Of a DNA stretch of 64,000 bases, positions 2,404-21,926 are shown piece after piece. Numbering within the stretch: position 1 is the stretch's first letter; each line of letters begins with the position of its first letter. This DNA comes from Escherichia phage ESCO5. The notes below the pieces were generated by a model. That model did not search any database, was not told the origin of the DNA, and saw nothing but the letters and a program-made list of their open reading frames with translations. Both the position numbers and the translations under genes were made by a program. The DNA is taken from sequence record NC_047776.2. One strand, written 5' to 3'.

Positions 2404-2612
2404 TATTCCTCCTTAATTATTTCAAACTTGGCAACACCATTTACAATAATATGACCACAAGACATAACTCCTAGCCAAGGATCGCCGTTTTTCTTCAGGC
2501 GTTTACCGAATACATCACAAAAACCATTCTTCATTTCAGAGGCTTCATAAGAAGCCCCTTTATCAAAAACGTCTTTGAATGTGTCGATTATACCAACACA
2601 TTTCAAAATCAT
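2403..2612 (-). CDS. hypothetical protein
   Basis: 69-aa ORF, start overlaps nrdB stop. Confidence 0.4.
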   Translation of the reverse strand: MILKCVGIIDTFKDVFDKGASYEASEMKNGFCDVFGKRLKKNGDPWLGVMSCGHIIVNGVAKFEIIKEE

Positions 2613-3697
2613 TCGAAGTCAAGCTCCTCATCATCAGAGAGATCTTTGTTAGCTGAATTCAATTTGTAGTTAGTTAACTGAATCTCTTGGGCTGCTGACT
2701 GAATCAAATCAGGATTCAACCATTTTTCCATCCAAGCTAAAGGGCTATGTTTAGGTGCTTTAAACTTGGCTTTCATTTTCAATCGACGATAAATAGGAGC
2801 AGCATTGAAATAAACCCACTGTTTAGACAATTCGGCGTTAAGACCTACAATAAAACGACCTTCACTAAACAGGTAGTCACACCACTGTTCCTCTTGTTCA
2901 ACAACAGTGTCGAGGATCAAAGTCAACTCTTCAATATTGTCTTCGTAAATTTTACGCCAAATTGGGTCATGCATCAATGCATCAATTACAGCATAATCCA
3001 TCTTAACATGCAAGATTTCATCTAGCATAATTTTCTGGATCAGTTTACAAGCTCCAACAAACAGTTGTTGTTCTGCCATAGCAAAAGTAGCAGAGAAGGA
3101 AGATATAAACTGAATACCTTCTAACCCAATCAGGGCTACCATCCCTTTAAGAATCAGCAGTCGAAGTTCATCGTTAGCTTCAATCAATCCTAGAGCATAC
3201 TTATGACCAGCTTCTTCCAACTGACCCATGATATCAGCAATGATACCCATACGATTGAAAATTTTATCATTAATCATAATCTGATTGATGACTTCAATTG
3301 GATCTGGAGTACATTGACGGATTATTTCAGAATACGTTAACGCATGGAGAACTTCCATTTCACTCTGCTTCATCATCATAGCACAGGCTTCATTGTTACT
3401 CAAGAATGGAGAGAACAAAGTGATGATTGATTTTGCAAGAGAATCATTTTCCCATTGGAACGATAAGTTTTTAATCATAACATCATAGTTGTTTTTAGAA
3501 CAAGCTACGAAATCTTTACGTGTCTGATCCAAGTTAACTTCGTTTTCATCCCAATCTTGTGCTTTTTGAAGTTTGTAGAGTTTGTGCATTTCTGGATAAG
3601 TCACGTTAACAGAATCAAAGATCCCTAATTGCTCCCCCAAAAATACTGGATATTTCCCTGTCTTGTAAACTTCGTTGTGTAAATTAATTGCTGCCAT
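2609..3697 (-). CDS. nrdB: ribonucleotide reductase class Ia beta subunit (NrdB)
   Basis: 362 aa; ferritin-like di-iron R2 pattern (EEAGHKYAL...GLEGIQF...LDEILHVK); paired with nrdA. Confidence 0.9.
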   Translation of the reverse strand: MAAINLHNEVYKTGKYPVFLGEQLGIFDSVNVTYPEMHKLYKLQKAQDWDENEVNLDQTRKDFVACSKNNYDVMIKNLSFQWENDSLAKSIITLFSPFLSNNEACAMMMKQSEMEVLHALTYSEIIRQCTPDPIEVINQIMINDKIFNRMGIIADIMGQLEEAGHKYALGLIEANDELRLLILKGMVALIGLEGIQFISSFSATFAMAEQQLFVGACKLIQKIMLDEILHVKMDYAVIDALMHDPIWRKIYEDNIEELTLILDTVVEQEEQWCDYLFSEGRFIVGLNAELSKQWVYFNAAPIYRRLKMKAKFKAPKHSPLAWMEKWLNPDLIQSAAQEIQLTNYKLNSANKDLSDDEELDFE

Positions 3698-4022
3698 TTA
3701 AATCCTCCACTATTTCACAAAAACCTTTTAAGTTTAAAATATCTTGTTCCTCAACACCATTAATCCGGTAGAAACCTTCTAAGGCTTGCCATACGCTTCT
3801 ACCAAGTATAACAGTCACTGTTTCTTCACTTCTTGCTCTTGTTATTGCGTAAGCCGTAGCTTCTGGATAAAAAGATTCCCAAATCTGGATATTAGCTATT
3901 TGAAGTCCGCCAAGATAATGGTGACACCAAACAGGGGTAAAATCTTCAGGGGGAATCAACAAAGGCTTAAACCCAGGACGGTAGATTGGGGTTACTCCAG
4001 GTAAAACTATAAGTGTGCTCAT
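3684..4022 (-). CDS. hypothetical protein
   Basis: 112-aa ORF between the homing endonuclease and nrdB; RBS GAGGAGAG upstream. Confidence 0.45.
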   Translation of the reverse strand: MSTLIVLPGVTPIYRPGFKPLLIPPEDFTPVWCHHYLGGLQIANIQIWESFYPEATAYAITRARSEETVTVILGRSVWQALEGFYRINGVEEQDILNLKGFCEIVEDLNGSN

Positions 4023-4034
4023 AATCTCTCCTCA

Positions 4035-4057
4035 ATAAAAAAGGGGCCGAAGCCCCT
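4035..4057 (-). terminator. rho-independent terminator
   Basis: Minus strand GGGGC-TTCG-GCCCC hairpin followed by a T-run, just after the stop of 4064-4723. Confidence 0.55.
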
Positions 4058-4063
4058 GTATTG

Positions 4064-4723
4064 TTAGCCTCGGAATACTGTTTTTGTTTCTGCCAGATTG
4101 TAATAGAAATCCGACTTGTTTACAAGTGTTTTGTAAACATCCTTACAAAAATGATCTTCCTGTTTGTAACGTTCCGCTGTCTCTTTGATGGACTTGGCTT
4201 TATCCTTAAGCCAAGCAAAATGTGCTTCTTCTTCTGTTGCAAAGTATCCTAAATGTTTGCTCTTGCTACCAGAAGCTTTGGCATAAATTTTACCATCTCC
4301 TTTCCTGACGTGCGCTCCCAGTAAATACTTCCTTTCTGTTCTCTTTGAGAAACTCAAAAGGGTATTCACATACGGAGGAACAAATCTACAATATTCAGGG
4401 CAGTATACAGTATTACCTTCCAGAACAAGGTCTTTGTCTAAAACAAAACCTTCGACATTATGTTCTTGATACCAGGTATCAAAATTTGAGAAAGTAAACC
4501 AAGAATCACACACAGTAGTAAACTCATAACCAGGACGTGTGTCCTTCATTTTATAAGCCCTATCAAACATGTTCCTCCACGCTGCATAAGAAGGATCTAT
4601 GAAAGTGTTTACTCTCTTCCCATTAATGGTTCCCCCTTCCCACAGTCTACGATCTACGTCCACAATCAAGGGGATTTCTCCCCTCTCTGTGAGAACGGTA
4701 ACTTTACGTTTACCCTTCTTCAT
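4064..4723 (-). mobile_element. AP2-domain homing endonuclease-like gene inserted between nrdA and nrdB
   Basis: 219 aa; AP2-like segment GKIYAKASGSKSKHLGYFATEEEAHFAW; paralog of 21002-21607; nrd intergenic position is a classic homing-endonuclease site. Confidence 0.55.
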
Positions 4724-4734
4724 CTGTTCTCCTA

Positions 4735-6978
4735 CTACATTTTACAGGCACTACACCCTTCGTCTTCAGAATCTTCTTGTGCTAAAGAATCTGCTGATTT
4801 TGTTCTACTATTAAGGTAATACAATGATTTGCCACCCAGTCTAGCAAAATTCAGAATAAACTGCATCTCAGCTTTCACGGATAAACGTCCACCTACTAAT
4901 TTAGAATAATCTAGCCAAGAATCACAAGAAATTCCTTGGTCAGTAAATTTGGTAAAGATACCATACATTTCTGCAAGGTCTTTAGCCGGAGTATCCCAGG
5001 CAGATTGGTAGAACATTTTCAGTTTTTCGTAGTCTGGAACAATAAATAATACACTACCTTTCTGACTTTGTTTATACATAATGGTATCACGGACAGGATA
5101 CAGAGAGTTAGTAGTATTGCTTACCAAACTGCTGGACTCATTAGGTGCAATAGCAGCCAATACACTGTTACGGATACCACCTTGTTCAATGATTTCAGCA
5201 CGTAAGCCTTCCCAGTCCATTTTAAGATCAAAATTACCGATACTATCTACTGTTTTAGCATAGGTGTCAATTGGTAGCCAACCTTGAGGCCATTTGGTCT
5301 TATCGATCCATTCCGCATTACCTTTTTCCTTAGCCAGACGCAGAGAGGCTTTTGCCAACCAAAAGTAATGACGTTCTGCAAGTTCATGCATTAATTTTTT
5401 AGCATAAGCATCTGAATAATTTACAAAATTACTTGCCAAGTAATGCGCTAAGTTTGTAATACCTACACCAATAGATCTACGTGCTTTAGCAGTTATTTCG
5501 TTATGTTTAAATGGATAATCCATTGTTTCAATAACGTTGTCAATTGTCAATACAGTGTAGTATGCAACATCCTCATATTCTTCAGGTAATACACGACCAG
5601 CAACAATAGAAGATAAGAAGCATAAAGCCAATTCTTGATCTTCTGTATTCTCACCAGTAAAGAGATCCGGCATACTGTGGAAAGCTTTAGTTGGCAAGAA
5701 GATCTCTTGACACAGGTTTGATTGATACACCGTATCCAGGAAAGGTGTATGGTTGTTAACGTTGTCAGCAAAGAACATGTAAATACGTCCTGTTTCTGCA
5801 CGTTGAACAATAATCTCTGTCAGAAGATCACGAGCCTTAACAAATTTTTTCTTAATGCGACGACGACTTACTTTGTCATAAACTGCATCAAACTCTTCTT
5901 CACTTTTATATAAAGCTTCATAAAGTTCAGGAGCATCATCACAACTAACTAACATCCAGTCTTCGTTTTTTGCTGCTCGACGCAAGAACGAACGGTTAAC
6001 AACAATAGAATAATCTAGTTTATCCACTCGTTTATCTATAGGTGTTGTTGGATTCTTCAGTCGAATCAGATCGTCGAAGTCTGGTTCAAGTATGGTAAAG
6101 GTAACTGTAGCACTACCTCCACGGCTTGCTTGCTTTGAAGCTCCAACACTATCTTCCATCCATTTCAGATACGGAAGAAGACCACCGTGAATAATACGAT
6201 TATTCTTAACACCTTGACCTGTGGCACGAGTTTGAAGATTAACACCAATACCTGCGTTATTCAACGTATACTCATGAGCTAAGTAATTAGCAATGGCTAA
6301 AGACTCTGCCGTATCGTCTGCACGGAATAAACAACAAGACGCACTTCCTTTGATTGGAGTTCGTAGAGTTGTCAGATATGGCGATGGCAGATTAATCTTA
6401 AGATCGCTGACATAAGTATAAAGTTTTTTAATATCTTCTATACGGCGTTCTTTTGGTTGGATCTCCATAACCTTCATTGCGATACCAATGAAAAGGAACT
6501 GTGGAGACTCATGCACCACATCGTTTACTGCATCTCGAATAAGATATTTATCCACCATTTGACGTAAAACAGAATAACCATAAGTTAGATTTTTATTATG
6601 CTTTACAATCTTACCGATTTCTTTGATCTCTTCATCAGTATAATCCATTTTAGCCCAATGACCACGTTCTACCATATCATGATAAAAGGTATTCAGTGAA
6701 GGGATACTGTGGTATCCCCCATGAGCCTGTTTGTAAATCATACCCAGAAGAAGTCTTCCTGCCATATCACTGTAAGCTTGTGTTTTCTTGTCAATACACG
6801 CTGCAATCATTGCTTTATGCAGATCACGTGTAGACACACCGTCATAACACCGCTTCACAGCTTCTAATTCAATTTCAGACCAGTTTAGTTTACCTGCTGC
6901 AAATTCAGACCACTTGCGAAGTTTTTCTGGGTTAAACTCCTCTGTCTTACCATTAGATTTAGTTACAAAACGAATCAA
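4735..6978 (-). CDS. nrdA: ribonucleotide reductase class Ia alpha subunit (NrdA)
   Basis: 747 aa; N-terminal ATP-cone-like segment, then large catalytic domain; adjacent to nrdB. Confidence 0.9.
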   Translation of the reverse strand: MIRFVTKSNGKTEEFNPEKLRKWSEFAAGKLNWSEIELEAVKRCYDGVSTRDLHKAMIAACIDKKTQAYSDMAGRLLLGMIYKQAHGGYHSIPSLNTFYHDMVERGHWAKMDYTDEEIKEIGKIVKHNKNLTYGYSVLRQMVDKYLIRDAVNDVVHESPQFLFIGIAMKVMEIQPKERRIEDIKKLYTYVSDLKINLPSPYLTTLRTPIKGSASCCLFRADDTAESLAIANYLAHEYTLNNAGIGVNLQTRATGQGVKNNRIIHGGLLPYLKWMEDSVGASKQASRGGSATVTFTILEPDFDDLIRLKNPTTPIDKRVDKLDYSIVVNRSFLRRAAKNEDWMLVSCDDAPELYEALYKSEEEFDAVYDKVSRRRIKKKFVKARDLLTEIIVQRAETGRIYMFFADNVNNHTPFLDTVYQSNLCQEIFLPTKAFHSMPDLFTGENTEDQELALCFLSSIVAGRVLPEEYEDVAYYTVLTIDNVIETMDYPFKHNEITAKARRSIGVGITNLAHYLASNFVNYSDAYAKKLMHELAERHYFWLAKASLRLAKEKGNAEWIDKTKWPQGWLPIDTYAKTVDSIGNFDLKMDWEGLRAEIIEQGGIRNSVLAAIAPNESSSLVSNTTNSLYPVRDTIMYKQSQKGSVLFIVPDYEKLKMFYQSAWDTPAKDLAEMYGIFTKFTDQGISCDSWLDYSKLVGGRLSVKAEMQFILNFARLGGKSLYYLNSRTKSADSLAQEDSEDEGCSACKM

Positions 6979-9407: not shown

Positions 9408-9983
9408 CTAACTTTCAATTTCCTGCAATAGGATTTTGACTATTTGTTTACGGCGTTTTGCTACTGTGCTTTCAGGTTCTATTTTACGCTTCTTCAGCCA
9501 TGCTTTATCTTTCTTAGCTCTACACAAAGCTATCGCTTCTTTTTCAGCTTTTGCTTCTTCAAAAGATATGCCTTGCTTGTCTGCATAAGCAAGAATAGAG
9601 TTGCACAATTTACAAACCATTCGCAAATCTTCTTCTTTCACATAAATCAAACGGAAAACAAAAAGAGGAATATCATCAAAACATTGAAGTTGTTTTGCTG
9701 CGTGAATATGATCCACTTGGAAGTCTTTCATTCCTCCTCTATGTCCACATATTTCGCACTCACAATTCCAAACTTGTTTTGGTTTTCCAGTTTTCTTATC
9801 TAGCATTACATTGCCGTCTTTATCTACGCGATCAACTTTAAAACGCCTTGCATTGATAACCTTAATTTTATTAGGGTGTCTCATCCATGCTTTTCTAAAA
9901 CATCCCCTAAGATAAGTATAAAATTCCGCTTGTGTTTTCCAGGGTGTTCCTTCACCCCACATTATTTTTGGTTCACCTGCCAA
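9408..9983 (-). CDS. HNH endonuclease domain protein
   Basis: 191 aa; CECEICGH...VDHIH...CKLCN HNH/zinc pattern; basic C-terminus. Confidence 0.5.
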   Translation of the reverse strand: MAGEPKIMWGEGTPWKTQAEFYTYLRGCFRKAWMRHPNKIKVINARRFKVDRVDKDGNVMLDKKTGKPKQVWNCECEICGHRGGMKDFQVDHIHAAKQLQCFDDIPLFVFRLIYVKEEDLRMVCKLCNSILAYADKQGISFEEAKAEKEAIALCRAKKDKAWLKKRKIEPESTVAKRRKQIVKILLQEIES

Positions 9984-19397: not shown

Positions 19398-19556
19398 TGT
19401 TTCCTAATCCTCCTCTCTTAAGTTATCCTCGAAAAAACTAGTGTCTGGAAGTAAAAGATCATTACTTGTGTCGGGCCAATCCTCTTCTTCTCGGTAGATA
19501 AAGTAACCTTCGTCCTCTTCTTGTTCCGACCAAACCGAATGATGCATGTTCTCTCC

Positions 19557-19901
19557 TTAGTAGTGCACACGAATCATTTTAATACCATAACGCAGCATAG
19601 ATTCTTTTGCAAGCATGAATTTATCCCCAGCGGCGGGATTAGAAGTATGCACGAAAATGGTGGGTGAACCAAAGCAAGGTTTACCAAACGCCAGAAGTTC
19701 TTCCAGGTACAGGAAAACATCATACCCATCTTGGTCTGACTCCATACCTAAATCATTGTCAAAAGACCACTCGGTTACTCTTCGATACAGTTTAGCAGGA
19801 TCGTTGAGAAAGGCCATAGCTTCTTGTGACGTTTTAAACCAAATTGCATCCTCCTGTCCATAGTCGGCTGGGTTCCGCATATCATCTATCCAAACTTTCA
19901 T
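19557..19901 (-). CDS. hypothetical protein
   Basis: 114-aa ORF. Confidence 0.4.
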   Translation of the reverse strand: MKVWIDDMRNPADYGQEDAIWFKTSQEAMAFLNDPAKLYRRVTEWSFDNDLGMESDQDGYDVFLYLEELLAFGKPCFGSPTIFVHTSNPAAGDKFMLAKESMLRYGIKMIRVHY

Positions 19902-20603: not shown

Positions 20604-20764
20604 GTTTTACCCTTATCAACCAAGGTCTTTGCTACAGCATACTCCTTCCCATTAACAATGAAATAATAAACTATAAAAGATTTTCCGATTGTTACTGTCT
20701 TAGTAACCTCTACGCGTTTAACACCTTGCATGTATTTTGCCTTACCGGAATAGAGTAAAATCAT
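20582..20764 (-). CDS. hypothetical protein
   Basis: 60-aa ORF. Confidence 0.3.
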   Translation of the reverse strand: MILLYSGKAKYMQGVKRVEVTKTVTIGKSFIVYYFIVNGKEYAVAKTLVDKGKTWKVEAL

Positions 20765-21042
20765 TTTGCATTCCTCTTGTTGTTGATAACATCCATAGCA
20801 GTATATGGTTTATTAGTGCCATGATACTCCAGAATCATTGGAGATCCTTCTTGCACTACTTCAAAGATACCATAAACAGAACTTTCAGCAAATACCATTT
20901 GCTTCGTACCTTCATCGTTTACAACGAGAGAAAACTTCTTGCCTGTCCCGTTGAGGATCTCGTATTTCTTGCCAGCCGTGAATAATCCAGAGTACCACTC
21001 ATTATCTGTTGCTTTTACACACTTCAGGAAAGTCTTGATCAT
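20761..21042 (-). CDS. hypothetical protein
   Basis: 93-aa ORF. Confidence 0.4.
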   Translation of the reverse strand: MIKTFLKCVKATDNEWYSGLFTAGKKYEILNGTGKKFSLVVNDEGTKQMVFAESSVYGIFEVVQEGSPMILEYHGTNKPYTAMDVINNKRNAK

Positions 21043-21607
21043 TTCTTTTTATCTCCTCTTTTAATCTATCTACTATACGAACATCATAGACGCCCTCTGT
21101 ATACATGTCAATAACTTCTTCAAGATAAACTTTTTTAGCTTTTCTGTAAGCTTCTTTTGCTGCCTCTTCTGTAGAAAAACTTCCAAGATAGAAGCCCTTA
21201 CCGAACTTACGGATGCTCGCTTGGTAGACCTTATCTCTCTTGTGATATGTAACACCCCTATAAGATGTCGAACCCATAAGTGCAAAATTCACATACTCTG
21301 GTATAAAGACACACGTGCTTGGTGAATAAACTTTAGAATCGGAAAGAAAATCCTTATCTAAAACTTTACCTTCCCAAGATTGACTCTCCATCCAGTTTTT
21401 GAAGTTAGAGAAGACCAACCATTCATCACAAACTTGAGAATTTTTGTATGCTGGCATCCTTGCCAACTGCTTCTCACAGTAACACCTACGCAACATATCC
21501 GTCCATCTCTCGTAATAAGGGCATGTCTTCCTTTTACCATCTTCTCCCCAAAAAGTAACTGGAACTTTTGAATCATTTATTCCTTTTCCGAACACTAGTT
21601 TTTTCAT
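21002..21607 (-). mobile_element. AP2-domain homing endonuclease-like gene (paralog of 4064-4723)
   Basis: 201 aa; YRGVTYHKRDKVYQASIRKFGKGFYLGSFSTEEAAKEAY AP2-like; shares VY(S/C)P..C.F(I/V)PEYVN segment with 4064-4723. Confidence 0.5.
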
Positions 21608-21926
21608 AAATTTTTAATACTCCGTTTTCTTTTGCACAGGTTGGTACTGTCTTAAGTCCTCTTCGTTTTGCATCTGGAAGATTGAGTGTCCACCATCCGA
21701 ACCAATAAATTTGGTCTGCCGTGAGTGGTTCAGCCATTGGATCTGCCTCCTGCTCCTCAAGACGTTGCAACGCTTCTTCAATCTTCTCGATTGGTGTGTC
21801 AAAGACGAATGCCTCCGTATCAAATTTATCTTTCTTAGGAACTGATTTGGCTACTTTGAGAACCTCGTTTTTCGGTTTCTTAGTAACGTTCTTTGGCTTT
21901 GATAACTTCTTCGGTGTTTTCGCCAC
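21573..21926 (-). CDS. hypothetical basic protein
   Basis: 117-aa ORF, lysine-rich N-terminus. Confidence 0.35.
   Translation of the reverse strand: MAKTPKKLSKPKNVTKKPKNEVLKVAKSVPKKDKFDTEAFVFDTPIEKIEEALQRLEEQEADPMAEPLTADQIYWFGWWTLNLPDAKRRGLKTVPTCAKENGVLKIYEKTSVRKRNK

Follow-up and report, generated by a model that had tools for sequence, protein, structure and literature searches.

Two optional genes in an Escherichia phage of the genus Phapecoctavirus, one of them between nrdA and nrdB, are probably free-standing homing endonuclease genes of the IPA-HNH family

Free-standing homing endonuclease genes at the genes for ribonucleotide reductase (RNR) are a known kind of element, and the family with which the genes described here are compared was named in 2023. 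This IPA-HNH family, defined by Barth, Dunham and Seed (2023; PMC10448857), has ICP1 gp59, gp115-116 and gp209 as its founders and joins a divergent HNH-like N-terminus, detectable only by HHsearch, to a C-terminal AP2 domain. Of the 431 IPA-HNH genes surveyed, 18% adjoin RNR genes, and the family is enriched near essential genes, including those for RNR, and at the boundaries of genetic exchange (PMC10448857). That the junction of nrdA and nrdB is a site for selfish elements, as a preliminary description of the present DNA had it, is well documented: in phage T4 the gene mobE sits in this spacer, where it is promoterless and cotranscribed with nrdA (Wilson and Edgell 2009; PMC2790892).

The DNA analysed here (the window, 64,000 nucleotides) is 100% identical to Escherichia phage vB_EcoM_REC (OM386667.1, genus Phapecoctavirus), and REC is used below for the window sequence. 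Two genes with an AP2 domain, here called A1 and A2, and one HNH gene had been described in it as homing-endonuclease-like insertions. In the ORF listing all three have the coordinates given in the preliminary description and lie on the minus strand; a further ORF, S, had been overlooked. The idea of insertion stands for A1 and A2, which are optional, have precise boundaries and are accompanied by deletion remnants and signs of co-conversion, and it falls for the HNH gene. The best explanation of the two loci, mechanism included, is that A1 and A2 were acquired independently and are free-standing homing endonuclease genes of the IPA-HNH family, and we consider it probably correct. The genes concerned are the following.

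2609–3697, minus strand: nrdB (strong Pfam match)
3684–4022, minus strand: S ORF, 112 amino acids, in the nrdA–nrdB spacer
4064–4723, minus strand: A1, 219 amino acids, predicted free-standing homing endonuclease gene of the IPA-HNH type
4735–6978, minus strand: nrdA (strong Pfam match)
9408–9983, minus strand: HNH/endonuclease VII-like gene, 191 amino acids, conserved core gene outside the mobile elements
21002–21607, minus strand: A2, 201 amino acids, second predicted homing endonuclease gene of the IPA-HNH type, with the domain order of A1

The A1 and A2 loci among related phages

The position of A1 between nrdA and nrdB was confirmed by the Pfam matches of both neighbours, and in the direction of transcription the locus reads nrdA, A1, a hairpin terminator, S and nrdB. 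The relatives used for comparing the loci were drawn from GenBank, a search of IMG/VR with nrdB having given six loci only. Over positions 1–24344 of the window, REC and phage Schickermooser are collinear at ~99% identity except at 3709–4765 and 21063–21626. The elements delimited by such comparisons are these.

3703–4026, minus strand: S cassette insert, 324 bp, containing the S ORF (breakpoints and alignment)
4027–4057, minus strand: ancestral intrinsic terminator of nrdA (terminator scan; AGGGGCTTCGGCCCCT followed by a T run, with the hairpin at 4057–4042)
4058–4765, minus strand: full extent of the A1 insert by comparison with phages that lack it (breakpoints in BLAST alignments with phAPEC8 and Schickermooser, and junction alignment)
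21063–21626, minus strand: A2 insert (BLAST breakpoints against phages with an empty site, and alignment)

A1 lies directly 3' of the nrdA stop codon, which is overlapped by its Shine-Dalgarno sequence AGGAG, and the insert is made up of the recoded end of nrdA (4735–4765), this AGGAG and the A1 ORF. In the carriers of A1 the end of nrdA is recoded; in REC this concerns the last ~10 codons, and the protein ends in ...DSEDEGCSACKM instead of the ...DSDGGCEACKM found at empty sites. At its other end the insert stops just before the hairpin, which the preliminary description had assigned to A1 as its own terminator. The same hairpin, however, also stands directly after nrdA in phages without the insert, and is annotated as a terminator in Schickermooser, whose site is empty; it is therefore the ancestral terminator of nrdA and does not belong to A1. 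A1 now lies upstream of this terminator and, to judge from the anatomy of the locus, uses it. Promoter scans near A1 gave no matches above the shuffled expectation, and from the same anatomy A1 would have no promoter of its own and would be read from the nrdA transcript.

Among the relatives, the nrdA–nrdB spacer was found in four states: empty, with a spacer of 44 bp that contains the terminator (Schickermooser); with S only (phAPEC8); with A1 only (nieznany, EF1-1); and with both (REC). Located between the terminator of nrdA and nrdB, the S cassette comes with ribosome-binding sites of its own. Its ORF matches phrog_17458, of unknown function, and has no match in Pfam or NCBIfam. It is absent from several close relatives, is found in the same place in distant ones (47–89% amino acid identity) and is represented in ESCO13 by an allele that is only 54% identical, inside flanks that are 99% identical. 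We considered S as a part of the A1 element and ruled this out, since S is present or absent independently of A1 and the ancestral terminator stands between them. S is not a nuclease and is separate from A1.

The end of nrdA is itself variable. In near-identical backgrounds there are at least three types of nrdA C-terminal tail, ...DSDGGCEACKM, ...DSEDEGCSACKM and ...DNLKESGCEGCSM (4735–4900; L015/L011/L018), and a terminal Cys-x-x-Cys pair is kept in all of them. The ...DNLKESGCEGCSM tail accompanies an A1 allele in EF1-1 and MirsaeidiM_Esher1, and occurs without A1 in ESCO13.

Some records gave a misleading picture of the spacer. Apparently different inserts in MRostami-2023b and vB_EcoM_01 proved to be N-masked or scaffold artefacts and were dropped. 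Two GenBank records (L013, OQ031492.1; L016, PP129558.1) have long runs of N exactly over the nrdA–nrdB spacer, one of them with a duplicated nrdA end, and were unusable for allele calls. This suggests that reference-guided assemblies break at the insertion site.

A2 is flanked by two genes of unknown function and overlaps the upstream one by 35 nt and the downstream one, at 20761–21042, by 41 nt. The upstream neighbour (21573–21926) encodes 117 amino acids, and in A2 carriers its last ~35 codons are recoded, upstream of the insert as delimited by BLAST. Judging from this anatomy, A2 too would have no promoter of its own and would be read from the transcript of the upstream gene. Inside the 3' end of A2 there is a near-consensus match to a sigma-70-type promoter (21111–21083, minus strand; TTGACA, a 17-nt spacer and TATGAT, 11 of 12 positions), and the downstream gene starts ~40 nt farther on (21042); the region has no more matches of this kind than expected from shuffled sequence. 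The A2 insert may in this way restore the expression of the gene that it displaced.

Two other differences between relatives were observed outside these loci. A stretch of 149 bp (19399–19547), near a short ORF at 19418–19570, is present in REC and Schickermooser and missing from EF1-1. In the metagenomic relative L020, a gene of 142 amino acids with a Pfam HNH_3 match (78–506) adjoins thyX, and it is absent from the otherwise identical neighbourhood in L019, which looks like a further polymorphic homing endonuclease site in this phage group.

The preliminary description had proposed a search for presence or absence polymorphism in related genomes, and the outcome was positive at both loci. 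Among ~60 near-identical Phapecoctavirus records, about a dozen have an intact A1-like gene and only three have a full-length A2. A1-like DNA was found in 22 phage records, a count that includes duplicate RefSeq/GenBank entries and one remnant, and these extend to a second genus, Justusliebigvirus. The remnant, in ZCKP1, is a deletion derivative of A1 in which the first ~12 and the last ~45 codons are left. Another is found in DE16, where the nrdA tail of the A1 type is followed by the ribosome-binding site, the first 21 nt of the gene and then directly the terminator.

The alleles of A1 are discordant with the genomes that carry them. Those of REC, nieznany and EF1-1 are 71–82% identical, when nrdA and nrdB are 97–99% identical among Phapecoctavirus. 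The allele of nieznany, on the other hand, is 90.3% identical to phi92 gp074, between phages whose nrdA and nrdB are 78% and 77% identical, respectively, and the nrdA tail of the A1 carriers is the nrdA tail of phi92. Differences from the empty-site reference are concentrated beside the insert, 17 of the 22 in REC being clustered in the last ~170 nt of nrdA, and MirsaeidiM_Esher1 has a longer divergent tract, with 48 differences in the nrdA end. A metagenomic contig of 154 kb has, in the same order, nrdA, a homing endonuclease gene, an S-like gene and nrdB, the endonuclease gene being a homolog 59% identical to A1. In the more distant phage L021, the gene next to the same upstream neighbour is an A2 homolog with 82% identity, and the C-terminal tail of that neighbour is identical to the recoded tail of REC. 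Both loci accordingly combine polymorphism at a precise site with co-converted flanks and, at the presumed target, a difference between the carrier and the empty allele. Taken with the remnants and the discordant alleles, these comparative data appear to be the footprints expected of homing by break repair.

Among the A1 alleles dN/dS is 0.06–0.14, with dS ~1–2.5, that is, near or beyond saturation. Such a low dN/dS with synonymous divergence near saturation points to a protein that has been kept functional, apparently over long periods while it moved between phage backgrounds.

The preliminary description took the two genes for paralogs, and so they are (36% identity over 159 amino acids, E 3e-23), with no similarity at the DNA level. 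It further proposed that the second copy arose by spread within the genome, which did not hold up, because the two copies are only 36% identical and far closer relatives of each are found in other phages at the corresponding site (up to 86% identity for A1 and 82% for A2). These comparisons fit independent acquisitions, in two separate invasions, better than a duplication within the genome.

The same record could be read in another way, with A1 and A2 as passive cargo at recombination hot spots, no longer cutting and moved by homologous recombination or by a nuclease acting in trans. The nuclease-less S cassette also varies in presence, and its divergent ESCO13 allele lies within near-identical flanks; ESCO13 has the third type of nrdA tail without A1; and the mobilisation in trans of a defunct endonuclease has been documented for T4 I-TevIII, by mobE (PMC2790892). 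We nevertheless consider cargo unlikely. Selection on A1 is that of a protein which is itself kept functional, the putative catalytic residues described below are invariant, and no other nuclease gene was found at the A1 or A2 site in REC, which counts against passive carriage. Some of the mosaicism at the nrdA–nrdB junction could still be the product of ordinary recombination, because the S cassette and the nrdA tail of ESCO13 are discordant without any nuclease. As to A1 and A2 themselves, for which we prefer homing, the invariant residues of catalytic type and the low dN/dS argue that the proteins are active.

Domain composition and predicted active site

By BLASTP both proteins match ICP1 gp59 (E 3e-23 for A1 and 1e-17 for A2), and the tblastn match in ICP1 falls on a CDS recorded as 'previously called GP59'; gp59 carries the same LDKD...YCPEYC...N motif. 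A2 matches PHROG 953 with E 9.6e-77. Relatives of the family were found by tblastn at 2,502 places in 1,487 phage records, and among 1.84 billion representatives of clusters made at 50% identity, 51,863 matched the profile at E <= 1e-3, 8,117 of them at E <= 1e-30. Many members of the family are longer, with 300–590 amino acids and profile matches in two to six stretches (proteins P0137–P0281), and in some (e.g., P0137 and P0157) two complete nuclease-AP2 units are fused in tandem.

A1 is laid out as N-terminal beta-hairpins, a nuclease domain (~44–123), an AP2-like domain (~137–187) and a C-terminal helix. The AP2 label given in the preliminary description is moderately supported: A2 reaches 32.2 bits (E 1.3e-7) with the Pfam AP2 model, just under the cutoff of 33.3, and A1 has no Pfam AP2 match. 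The model matches 57 of the 127 family members, the family profile gives weak matches to plant AP2/ERF structures (ERF/WRI1) among PDB sequences, and in the AlphaFold2 (AF2) model of A1 (pLDDT 92.8) residues 137–187 form a three-stranded sheet and, after it, a long helix.

The HNH models of Pfam matched neither A1 and A2 nor a single one of the 127 family members; A1 and A2 had no match to a nuclease model of Pfam or to any model of NCBIfam, and there was no nuclease among the PDB matches of the family profile. The AF2 models have the beta-beta-alpha topology, and they are consistent with the His-Me finger/HNH type, which has a beta-beta-alpha-metal fold with a metal-binding Asn or His in the helix. 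In A1 this would be a PacI-like domain without the His, with D96, K97, Y107 and N120 as its characteristic residues.

In canonical HNH enzymes the first strand ends in Asp-His. Members of this family have Asp-Lys at that place, with Lys in 127 of the 127 aligned sequences, so that the catalytic His is missing from all of them. The best structural match of the modelled nuclease domain (pLDDT 90.9) is PacI, which supports a structural similarity at the level of the models. PacI is an HNH enzyme without the His, in which a Tyr in the loop between the strands is placed to act as general base, with one Asp and one Asn as ligands of the metal (PMC4081073, PMC5714182). Where PacI has VD92-R93-SDSFEG-Y100-SP...C-N113, A1 has LD96-K97-DLVLEGNTV-Y107-CP...V-N120, with the same spacing of 13 residues from Tyr to Asn (Y100 to N113 in PacI), the residues being equated by motif and not by superposition. 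The set is almost completely conserved in the family (D96 in 126 of 127 sequences, and K97, Y107 and N120 in all 127). Of 145 further representatives, with at most 50% mutual identity, 122 showed the motif in a simple pattern search; every one of these has Asn at the position Tyr+13, and 118 have Lys after the Asp.

The likeness to PacI is confined to structure and motif. Comparison by hhalign with PacI, or with a nine-member PacI alignment, gave a probability of 0.2, that is, no detectable sequence homology. The two Cys4 zinc sites of PacI are not conserved in A1, where Ala and Thr replace two of the consensus Cys, and only C72 and C112 are widely conserved among the Cys positions of the family. 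The structure match and the motif nonetheless suggest that catalysis by A1 and A2 is PacI-like, with Y107 replacing the missing catalytic His. The main text of the paper that defined the family (PMC10448857) mentions neither histidine, lysine nor PacI, and reports no activity assay. Whether the IPA-HNH family as a whole forms a branch of the HNH superfamily that is PacI-like and depends on Tyr is, in our estimation, an even question. Should the link hold, an active site with Tyr for His, in a group to which the 2017 survey of His-Me enzymes assigned <100 members, would be among the commonest nuclease chemistries of phage selfish genes, and the enzymes might differ from standard HNH homing enzymes, for example in their use of metals or by a covalent Tyr-DNA intermediate.

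The replacement of the catalytic His by Lys was at first glance the sign of a dead nuclease, an interpretation that was set aside after the match to PacI and the invariance of the Tyr. It is also one of the points in favour of A1 and A2 being domesticated DNA-binding proteins, such as regulators of the AP2 type, with a catalytically dead nuclease domain and kept because they are useful. Neither has a nuclease match in Pfam or NCBIfam, phi92 gp074 is annotated as a 'potential transcription factor', the A1 alleles are under strong purifying selection, and there are precedents, such as the MH1 domain of Smad, for His-Me domains that have turned into DNA binders with loss of the His (PMC5714182). 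A useful regulator, however, would not be absent from most of the near-identical relatives nor decay by deletion; the residues conserved almost without exception are the Asp, Tyr and Asn that PacI uses for catalysis; the recoded ends of the upstream genes and the clusters of SNPs beside the insert look like footprints of break repair; and divergent alleles keep returning to the same site. We therefore regard domestication as very unlikely.

Proposed homing mechanism and the third gene

Homing of A1 and A2 would proceed as follows. In a mixed infection with a related phage that lacks the gene, the protein would bind the empty allele and cut or nick it close to where the upstream gene ends. Repair of the break from the genome of the carrier would copy in the endonuclease gene and a variable stretch of its neighbourhood. 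The recoded 3' end of the upstream gene would protect the carrier's own site. In the active site, Y107, in the loop between the strands, would stand in for the catalytic His, with D96 and N120 holding the metal ion and K97 at the position of the Arg in PacI. A1 would be translated from its own ribosome-binding site, on a transcript that ends at the old nrdA terminator.

The third gene, at 9408–9983, is of a different nature. It has the canonical CxxC...DH...CxxCN motif and matches PHROG 1985, 'HNH endonuclease' (E 7e-66), and PHROG 2914, 'endonuclease VII' (E 8.6e-6); its Pfam matches to Endonuclease_7 and HNH are weak and under threshold, and a sequence match in the PDB was not found. The gene lies in a single collinear block in 67 of the 67 relatives that align over most of the query, and its 549 places in 548 phage records are those of a single-copy gene. 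Its identity is 97–99% within the genus and 76–77% in Justusliebigvirus, falling with phylogenetic distance, as expected for vertical inheritance. Its place among thyX and the genes for a DnaQ-like polymerase exonuclease subunit and an exonuclease is the same in phage alia and in the distant Pseudomonas phage PAK_P3. The preliminary description, which counted this gene among the insertions, had itself named conservation in all relatives with syntenic context as evidence to the contrary, and this is the pattern found. Most likely it serves the replication and recombination module as a housekeeping nuclease; that it, too, is a mobile homing endonuclease insertion is extremely improbable in view of its occurrence in every relative, single copy, vertical pattern of identity and position kept as far as alia and PAK_P3, even though the copies in relatives are annotated as 'HNH endonuclease', PHROG 1985 carries the same name and HNH genes are often mobile.

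Implications and comparison with known systems

Since the kind of element is known, the additions made here are modest: a detailed natural history of two loci, and the reading of their active site as His-less and PacI-like. Three annotations are corrected, two 'hypothetical proteins' becoming, as predicted here, optional selfish endonuclease genes and one supposed insertion becoming a core gene. For a family known only from comparative genomics, the loci offer a well-resolved natural example, with empty sites and deletion remnants, transfer between genera, and tracts of co-conversion that differ in length. The missing catalytic His and the invariant set of Asp, Tyr and Asn point to candidate active-site residues. 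The A1 and A2 sites also mark where recombination between therapeutic coliphages of the genus is likely to be biased, and they are places at which reference-guided assemblies fail, as in the two GenBank records with runs of N over the nrdA–nrdB spacer.

Among the known systems, T4 endonuclease VII and other zinc-binding phage HNH nucleases share the CxxC...DH...CxxCN arrangement with the core gene at 9408–9983. PacI (PDB 3LDY/3M7K; His-Me group 20), to which the predicted active site of A1 and A2 is most similar, is a restriction enzyme, a small homodimer that lacks an AP2 domain and is not the product of a mobile gene.

The canonical HNH_3-AP2 homing endonucleases (His-Me group 2, I-HmuI-like; PMC5714182) resemble A1 and A2 in their occurrence in phages and in having the nuclease domain followed by AP2, but they keep the catalytic His and match Pfam HNH_3, of which A1 and A2 do neither. 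T4 mobE is the counterpart of A1 in its niche between nrdA and nrdB, in its promoterless layout (for A1, as suggested by the anatomy) and in the co-conversion of flanking RNR sequence. It nicks nrdB, downstream, whereas the sequence recoded with A1 is the 3' end of nrdA, upstream. Moreover, the Mob class combines a canonical HNH_3 domain with a zinc finger (PMC10448857), and thus belongs to another nuclease subfamily and uses another DNA-binding domain than A1; no Pfam match to HNH_3 or to a zinc finger was found in A1 or A2.

The members of the ICP1 gp59 family are direct homologs of A1 and A2, with the same domain order and an HNH-like N-terminus that is likewise not seen by Pfam HNH_3. The motif LDKD...Y.P..C...N is common to A1, A2 and the IPA-HNH genes of ICP1. 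A1 and A2 differ from the latter in residing in coliphages of the Stephanstirmvirinae, and in being shorter proteins with two N-terminal hairpins only. Relative to the survey of Barth et al., what is specific to the A1 and A2 loci is the evidence at the population level, namely the empty sites, the remnants and the co-conversion tracts.
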